DNA from: Candidatus Baldrarchaeota archaeon
Lineage (GTDB): Archaea > Asgardarchaeota > Baldrarchaeia > Baldrarchaeales > DXJG01
Direction of reading: 5' to 3'
DNA length: 32,000 bases
Assembly: GCA_019056805.1 (NCBI GenBank)
Contig: DXJG01000009.1
Coordinates: 90,001 to 122,000, forward strand
Numbering within the stretch: the first letter of the stretch is position 1; every line of letters starts with the position of its first letter. The position numbers and the translations under genes were made by a program. Positions 26,189 to 26,343 of this stretch are shown here, piece by piece. Below the pieces are notes generated by a model, which saw only the letters and a list, made by a program, of their open reading frames with translations, ran no database searches and was not told the origin of the DNA.

Positions 26189-26343
26189 TGGCGGGCCCGG
26201 CGGGATTCGAACCCGCGACCACCGGGTCTCTCCCTACGCACTTTTTAGATAAAAGCTTCACCCATAGACGCCAAATCGTCTATGTCCGGCGCTCTACTTT
26301 GCCGGTTCCATCATTTGATTACCTCTAGCTGAGCTACGGGCCC
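26189..26343 (-). tRNA. tRNA-Lys: tRNA-Lys(UUU) with three introns and encoded CCA
   Basis: Removing 26324-26298 (27 nt, D-loop about 18/19), 26285-26257 (29 nt, 30/31) and 26249-26228 (22 nt, 37/38) gives the 77-nt cloverleaf GGGCCCG UA GCUC AGCUAGGUA GAGC G CCGGG CU UUU AA CCCGG UGGUC GCGGG UUCGAAU CCCGC CGGGCCC G CCA. Introns 2 and 3 form full bulge-helix-bulge motifs. Confidence 0.92.

Follow-up and report, generated by a model that had tools for sequence, protein, structure and literature searches.

What does a minus-strand locus encode when it opens with a GC-rich acceptor stem of 7 bp, closes with a flawless T-arm, an acceptor 3' strand, G73 and CCA, and holds 78 additional nucleotides, distributed over three blocks, between these two ends of a tRNA-Lys(UUU) gene? 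The locus lies in the window (the whole 32,000-nucleotide stretch of an Asgard archaeal contig analysed here), where the original prediction had read it as a tRNA-Lys(UUU) gene with three introns. This reading is borne out by the spliced cloverleaf, the ARAGORN call on that product, our own motif search and the conservation of the exons: the locus is a genuine triple-intron tRNA-Lys(UUU) gene (Table 1). Multi-intron tRNA genes of the Thermoproteales were reportedly described by Sugahara in 2007 and 2008. We consider it very probable that the gene is a functional one, belonging to a heat-adapted Asgard archaeon, and that its three BHB introns are protein-spliced, with processing by EndA and RtcB.

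Table 1. Features of the tRNA-Lys(UUU) gene, and the second EndA gene of the same genome. Coordinates refer to the window except for EndA-2; the window coordinate of gene position p is 26344-p (minus strand).
Feature	Coordinates	Gene positions	Strand	Description
Whole tRNA-Lys(UUU) gene	26189..26343		-	155 nt including encoded CCA (26191-26189); spliced product is a perfect cloverleaf
Exon 1 (tRNA positions 1-18)	26325..26343		-	Acceptor 5' strand, D-stem 5' strand, D-loop through G18
Intron 1, 27 nt, D-loop G18/G19	26298..26324	p20-46	-	Relaxed HBh' motif
Exon 2 (tRNA positions 19-30)	26286..26297		-	Remaining D-loop, D-stem 3' strand, G26, C27-G30
Intron 2, 29 nt, at 30/31	26257..26285	p59-87	-	Strict hBHBh' motif
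Exon 3, 7-nt micro-exon G31-A37 (GCUUUUA), anticodon UUU	26250..26256		-	
Intron 3, 22 nt, canonical 37/38 position	26228..26249	p95-116	-	
Exon 4 (tRNA positions 38-76)	26189..26227		-	Anticodon stem 3' strand, variable loop, T-arm, acceptor 3' strand, G73, CCA
EndA-2, presumed structural subunit	G000:C9:13779-14261 (locus L022:1474-2010)		-	178 aa

Removal of all three introns leaves a 77-nt perfect cloverleaf that ARAGORN calls tRNA-Lys(ttt), with stems of 7, 4, 5 and 5 bp, U33, G18G19 and CCA. The anticodon loop of this class I cloverleaf, CUUUUAA, presents UUU within seven nucleotides with U33 and a purine at 37, and the spliced D-loop AGCUAGGUA agrees with those of compact homologues (AGUCAGGUA, AGCCAGGUA). 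Under the published BHB geometry (a central helix H of 4 bp with a 3-nt bulge on either strand, each cut after bulge nucleotide 2), each of the six predicted cut sites falls after the second nucleotide of a bulge. A genome-wide search that combined BHB motifs with a cloverleaf filter returned the identical three introns as the best solution for the locus. Minimal strict motifs arise by chance about 2.8 times per shuffled 152-nt sequence (approximately 3e-4 per junction pair), and a BHB motif alone is weak evidence; the same cannot be said of a motif at which splicing exactly restores a tRNA, and two strict motifs at the exact junctions, with flanking helices of 8 bp and 7 bp, are not a product of chance.

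All of the helices named at the outset are present, with the single amendment that the outer helix of intron 2 comprises 4 bp (A21-G24 with C32-U35) and not 3. The intron 2 motif joins this helix to a central helix CGCC/GGUG and an inner helix of 8 bp, forming a strict hBHBh' motif already in the primary transcript, with exon 2 providing the 5' strands of both the outer and the central helices. Intron 3 is built around a central helix of C32-U35 with GGAG (C-G, U-A, U-G and U-G), two 3-nt bulges and a 3-bp inner helix h' (CUA/UAG); its outer helix amounts to 1 bp while intron 2 is present (relaxed) and extends to 7 bp after intron 2 removal (strict hBHBh'). Introns 2 and 3 both display four of four central pairs and 3-nt bulges, as a BHB motif should, and each flank bears a helix of 2 bp or more in intron 2 (h 4, h' 8) and, once intron 2 has been removed, in intron 3.

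Intron 1 belongs to the relaxed HBh' class. Its motif consists of GCU/GGC and GGU/ACC (h', 3 bp), a 3-nt 5' bulge and a 3' cut within a 6-nt loop; the central helix has three of four pairs (3 bp plus an A.A mismatch), and no outer helix adjoins the 3' bulge, leaving the motif short of at least 2 bp on both flanks. A relaxed motif with these very pairings had been predicted, together with a requirement for the D-stem; the pairings stand and the requirement is not supported as stated. Given such a motif, the insert might be left unspliced as an enlarged D-loop, or be removed in some other way, with introns 2 and 3 the only true BHB introns, and many Asgard D-arm inserts are indeed reported without a canonical motif (2026 Asgard census). 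We find this highly unlikely, as the resulting 36-nt D-loop without adjacent G18G19 is implausible, the 5' bulge sets the cut exactly where G18G19 is restored and compact homologues show the predicted 9-nt D-loop. The insert also has conserved ends (AGG...ACCGGYAAA) around a variable middle, and the EndA of this genome has the loop Lys that is tied to relaxed-motif cleavage. Splicing of intron 1 through its relaxed motif remains our preferred reading. A box C/D element in the same intron, where AUGAUGG is present, was considered and rejected, the motif being conserved neither in orthologues nor in tRNA-Lys(CUU).

Comparison with related loci separates exons from introns. BLAST against 40 relatives identified a full-length orthologue in a genome of the same genus (G001), and pattern scans added orthologues on contig C22 of genome G041 and on three metagenome contigs, giving an alignment of six sequences (the window gene, from genome G000, and five orthologues). 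The exon positions are invariant throughout (77/77, with exons 1, 2 and 4 unchanged in all six sequences), as against 40 invariant and 38 variable positions among the 78 of the introns, and purifying selection on the exons is clear. Both candidate folds described below retain pairing in 99% of alignment cells; displacing the partners by 1-3 columns lowers this to 32-51%. The inner helix of intron 2 is 100% paired in the six orthologues across two double-sided and two one-sided changes, and that of intron 3 shows one compensatory change; the observed covariation score is reached by 5 of 500 shuffles. Because the six orthologues are close kin, the covariation suggests modest, if consistent, support for the motifs.

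The flanking protein genes are syntenic, with 68-87% amino-acid identity. Divergent from the tRNA gene lies a 248-aa SAM-dependent methyltransferase (window 26543-27289, plus strand), which has only generic Pfam matches (Methyltransf_11/25/31) and adjoins the three-intron tRNA-Lys(UUU) gene in all five orthologous loci, again at 68-87% amino-acid identity. Beyond it, an 871-aa open reading frame (window 27393-30008, plus strand) carries both a radical SAM and an intein splicing domain (Pfam). In Candidatus Jordarchaeia QZM_A3 (G443), no copy of the three-intron gene was found.

Two further tRNA genes of the same genome share parts of the layout. The paralogue tRNA-Lys(CUU) (G000:C17:55084-55207) has introns at the positions of introns 1 and 3 and none at 30/31. 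Its D-loop intron occupies the same position and has the same conserved ends (AGG...ACCGGCAAA), its anticodon stem, which no intron interrupts (CCGGG/CCCGG), is the one expected for tRNA-Lys(UUU) after intron 2 splicing, and the two tRNA bodies are identical except at position 34 and one D-stem base. This two-intron form recurs in the relatives G001, G002 and G003. The tRNA-Asn(GUU) gene (G000:C17:67088-67215), interrupted at 24/25, 30/31 and 37/38, gives a spliced product that ARAGORN recognizes as tRNA-Asn, and it has the same 7-nt micro-exon and 30/31 boundary motif as tRNA-Lys(UUU) (CCGG/A..hairpin..GGCGAA/GCU, slashes marking the junctions).

The prediction that standard scanners might miss or miscall the gene proved right on both counts. 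ARAGORN reported nothing in the window, and nothing in the isolated locus under default settings or when introns were permitted; a less stringent run miscalled the locus as tRNA-Leu(gag) with one 82-nt intron. In Rfam, the unspliced locus had no tRNA match at the gathering score or at E<=1, and the sole related match was a 14-bit fragment resembling a tmRNA 3' end. An essential tRNA gene is thus missed by both ARAGORN and the Rfam tRNA model, and the genome would seem to be without tRNA-Lys(UUU).

A search for another tRNA-Lys(UUU) gene, proposed as a check on the original prediction, did yield a second candidate. Scanning the whole genome for a UUU anticodon loop with a T-arm returned only the three-intron gene and G000:C9:551-662. 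One canonical 35-nt intron interrupts this candidate at 37/38; it has A73 and, in the acceptor, a C4.C69 mismatch, and it begins shortly after a scaffold gap of 40 N at G000:C9:477-516. Over its final 44 nt it matches exactly the 3' half of an adjacent tRNA gene with several introns. That gene has its 5' part before the gap, at G000:C9:383-476 (the whole region, G000:C9:383-662, is locus L149:383-662), and is intact in two relatives (G001:C13 and G003:C22). The 5' half of the candidate was not found in G001-G003. Motif enumeration on the neighbouring gene gave hundreds of inconsistent ARAGORN calls. The candidate may represent tandem genes whose assembly has collapsed, a chimera, or a 5' half lying inside an intron of the other gene and sharing its 3' half. 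Were it the working tRNA-Lys(UUU), the three-intron locus could be a decaying or silent pseudogene, and in favour of that argument the candidate does have a UUU anticodon and, upstream, an AT-rich stretch resembling a promoter. The proposal is nonetheless extremely improbable: among six diverged orthologues none of the 77 exon positions varies, against drifting and covarying introns, the cloverleaf is flawless and shares G73 and CCA with the tRNA-Lys(CUU) paralogue, and the candidate itself is marked by the acceptor mismatch, A73, the gap, a borrowed 3' half and a 5' half not found in G001-G003. The case for the three-intron gene, with its exons clearly subject to purifying selection, is not weakened by the candidate.

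How, then, would such a precursor be spliced? Only 7 nt (G31-A37) lie between introns 2 and 3, and their motifs therefore compete for C32-U35, bases that belong both to the outer helix of intron 2 and to the central helix of intron 3; such an overlap follows geometrically from having BHB introns on either side of a 7-nt exon. By occupying C25-C28 as well, the intron 2 motif precludes the D-stem and the upper end of the anticodon stem, and G22-C25 are likewise claimed by competing helices. These shared bases confirm that the intron 2 motif is incompatible with the intron 3 motif and the D-stem, as had been proposed, and with the anticodon stem. With the motifs in competition, the precursor must alternate between two folds and lose introns 2 and 3 singly. 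The further step in the original prediction, that mutual exclusion implies ordered splicing, does not hold: one-at-a-time removal follows, and a fixed order does not.

Several observations bear on whether an order nevertheless exists. The full intron 2 motif is still available after intron 3 removal, and intron 3 keeps a relaxed HBh' motif (H + h') with intron 2 in place. At 37 C, the conformer that combines the cloverleaf with the intron 3 motif (conformer A) is predicted at -41.6 kcal/mol versus -41.1 kcal/mol for that with the intron 2 motif (conformer B); the two are isoenergetic, and thermodynamics therefore fixes no order. A broad-specificity EndA accepts HBh' motifs (PMC5829648, PMC4090602), and a tentative but credible reading would be that the gene is real and that introns 2 and 3 leave in no fixed order, the enzyme cutting whichever motif it meets first in two folds of equal stability. 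Against this stand the local motif energies (37 C), in which intron 3 on its own has an unstable motif (+5.7 kcal/mol) that becomes stable (-6.6 kcal/mol) only when intron 2 removal restores the anticodon stem, and the intron 2 motif reaches -13.8 kcal/mol (intron 1 with the D-stem, -3.7 kcal/mol). Archaeal cases have also been described in which the last motif forms only once other introns are removed, and in Cyanidioschyzon merolae (C. merolae) the order of processing followed BHB stability (PMC3728597). As predictions, the local energies favour the removal of intron 2 first. We lean, by somewhat more than an even chance, towards intron 2 leaving first as the most likely order in such modelling, because its motif is the sole strict and the most stable one in the primary transcript.

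Folding of the whole precursor gave a different picture. Minimum-free-energy and partition-function calculations at 37, 60 and 75 C recovered neither BHB conformer, nor even the T-arm; the predicted minimum lies at -59.2 kcal/mol, compared with approximately -41 kcal/mol for either splice-competent conformer, and base-pair probabilities of the BHB helices are at most 0.05. This predicted structure is not tRNA-like, and we regard the calculation as uninformative for this RNA.

The genome encodes the enzymes that such splicing would call for. Two EndA paralogues each pass the Pfam cut-offs for both PF01974 and PF02778. EndA-1 (184 aa), encoded at G000:C9:197884-198387, retains the catalytic Tyr/His/Lys and is best matched in the PDB by the catalytic subunit of Aeropyrum pernix EndA (3P1Z_B, 1.4e-44), to which it aligns end to end; in the ungapped alignment its K39 (IRKPK) lies opposite A. 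pernix Lys44 (VEKPR) of the Crenarchaea-specific loop, a Lys needed for non-canonical introns (PMC3241643, PMC2724299). The likeness to the A. pernix enzyme (PDB 3P1Z) thus takes in the full-length catalytic subunit, the triad and the loop Lys. The difference resides in the partner: EndA-2 showed no match to the A. pernix structural subunit and is closest to the homotetrameric (alpha4) Methanocaldococcus jannaschii (M. jannaschii) enzyme (3e-29), with Val at the residue aligned to M. jannaschii His125 and the catalytic Tyr and Lys kept. An RtcB ligase is also encoded (608 bits). From its sequence the endonuclease is assigned to the (alpha-beta)2 type with an L1 loop, as described in Asgard archaea (Kaneta 2018, PMC5829648), and by homology it would assemble as a heterotetramer and cut relaxed motifs. 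Determining the EndA type had been suggested as a check, and the outcome, a putative two-subunit enzyme with the broad-specificity loop Lys present, is the one that the gene would need.

These elements suggest a route from gene to tRNA. The locus would be transcribed into a precursor of approximately 155 nt, in which the intron 2 motif would occupy the D-stem 3' strand and C27-C28, making the RNA switch between two folds. A heterotetramer-type EndA, pairing a catalytic subunit that bears the Crenarchaea-specific/L1 loop with a paralogue without the catalytic His, would cut after nucleotide 2 of each 3-nt bulge, and RtcB would then join the exons. Intron 2 would leave first, the cloverleaf would form, and intron 3 would gain a strict motif that stacks on the anticodon stem, now whole again; intron 1 would be spliced independently through its relaxed motif. 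One plausible benefit of the exclusion, we infer, is that the 7-nt anticodon exon would never be released, because EndA would be unable to cut its two sides at once.

Such interruption is not confined to this gene. In its own genome, approximately 40 of some 45 tRNA loci detected exceed the length of a compact tRNA, at least six of them with three predicted introns, and mutual exclusion holds also for the tRNA-Asn(GUU) gene. In published Atabey- and Freyarchaeia, 92-95% of tRNA genes are interrupted. The exact 30/31 pattern occurs in 2 of 400 Asgard genomes, both of the window's genus, and is absent from the other 398; it is also present in two Korarchaeota-like genomes (G041, on contig C6, and G406), from a phylum of 43 genomes that includes the record 'Kor1'. 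As a gapped pattern, the 30/31 junction is found on at least 119 metagenome contigs. Among the matches listed are 73 distinct complete tRNA-Lys(UUU) genes, all selected for a 30/31 intron, of which 63 combine a D-loop insert with introns at 30/31 and 37/38 and the other 10 have introns at 30/31 and 37/38 only. All 73 of these listed genes possess an inner helix of at least 2 bp, a feature that the pattern did not impose, and they comprise 43 distinct intron sequences. The 63 genes, together with the published extent of Asgard tRNA interruption, render out of date the initial view that triple-intron tRNAs are rare.

These genes form a large soil and sediment family (metagenome loci L160-L278) in which tRNA-Lys(UUU) has a 30/31 intron. 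Protein queries from this lineage gave a weak Thermoproteota lead for RpoB, and a fumarase with bacterial neighbours. The family, taken together with the Korarchaeota-like genomes G041 (contig C6) and G406, resembles the window gene in its 30/31 junction motif (CCGG/A...GGYGAA/GCUUUUA), 7-nt micro-exon and canonical 37/38 intron, and differs from it in having A, not G, at position 26 and in its T-loops. A hand-parsed soil gene (L160) has a D-loop intron with a strict BHB, cut 2 nt upstream (17/17a) of the site in the window gene; this is probably not the same insertion as intron 1, and only the pair of introns at 30/31 and 37/38 is clearly shared. By analogy of geometry, every environmental homologue should show the same exclusion. 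A more ambitious interpretation, which we put forward as speculative and on balance doubtful, would take the 30/31 and 37/38 pair around the 7-nt micro-exon as an old, selectively maintained device and not an accident, keeping the 7-mer covalently attached on one side until RtcB seals the other; the distribution would then reflect descent from before the Asgard/TACK divergence with many losses, or gene transfer between phyla.

Known systems supply most of the components of the window gene. The Thermoproteales share with it an (alpha-beta)2 EndA with a specific loop (reviewed in PMC4033280 and PMC4090602) and motifs that become available only after removal of another intron (PMC3728597); they differ in lineage, being Thermoproteota where this gene is Asgard. 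The 2026 Asgard census, of the same phylum, reports more than 90% of tRNA genes interrupted, up to five inserts per gene, D-arm inserts that annotators often miss and that tRNAscan-SE misses preferentially, and two EndA paralogues in most genomes. It differs in its focal families (Freyr-, Jordi- and Atabeyarchaeaceae), with Baldrarchaeia not mentioned and neither competing motifs nor splicing order discussed. A C. merolae tRNA (PMC3728597) likewise has three BHB introns, one in the D-arm and one at 37/38, and experiments show an order of processing that follows the stability of the motifs and ends with the anticodon-loop intron; this is a eukaryotic gene, however, with independently folding, non-competing motifs and a third intron in the T-loop. 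The layout studied here is therefore neat but ordinary, since related genomes have it, as do dozens of archaeal sequences from the environment. The literature already covers tRNAs with several introns, splice motifs contingent on a prior splicing event, EndA of broad specificity and the heavy interruption of Asgard tRNA genes, and the gene, whose layout is common in metagenomes, leaves existing knowledge unchanged. Its value is as a clean, well conserved case for testing how archaeal pre-tRNAs with closely spaced introns are processed, offering two competing folds, a 7-nt exon that has to be retained and a relaxed D-loop motif in a lineage near eukaryotes.

Two minor observations concern the genomes themselves. 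That of the window, whose GTDB kinship pattern fits Asgard archaea, includes an ESCRT-II EAP30 domain match above the Pfam cut-off. The second involves G041, deposited as 'Thermoproteota archaeon isolate Kor1', whose contig C22 (L059/L145) is syntenic with this Asgard genus and carries a three-intron tRNA-Lys(UUU) gene; a 14-mer scan of genome contigs was unspecific (120 mostly bacterial chance matches), with this locus (L059) the one true orthologue. Contig C6 of the same record (L154/L282) carries a different, CCA-less two-intron tRNA-Lys(UUU) gene along with tRNA-Lys(CUU). G041 looks like a mixed bin or, less likely, contains a transferred segment.
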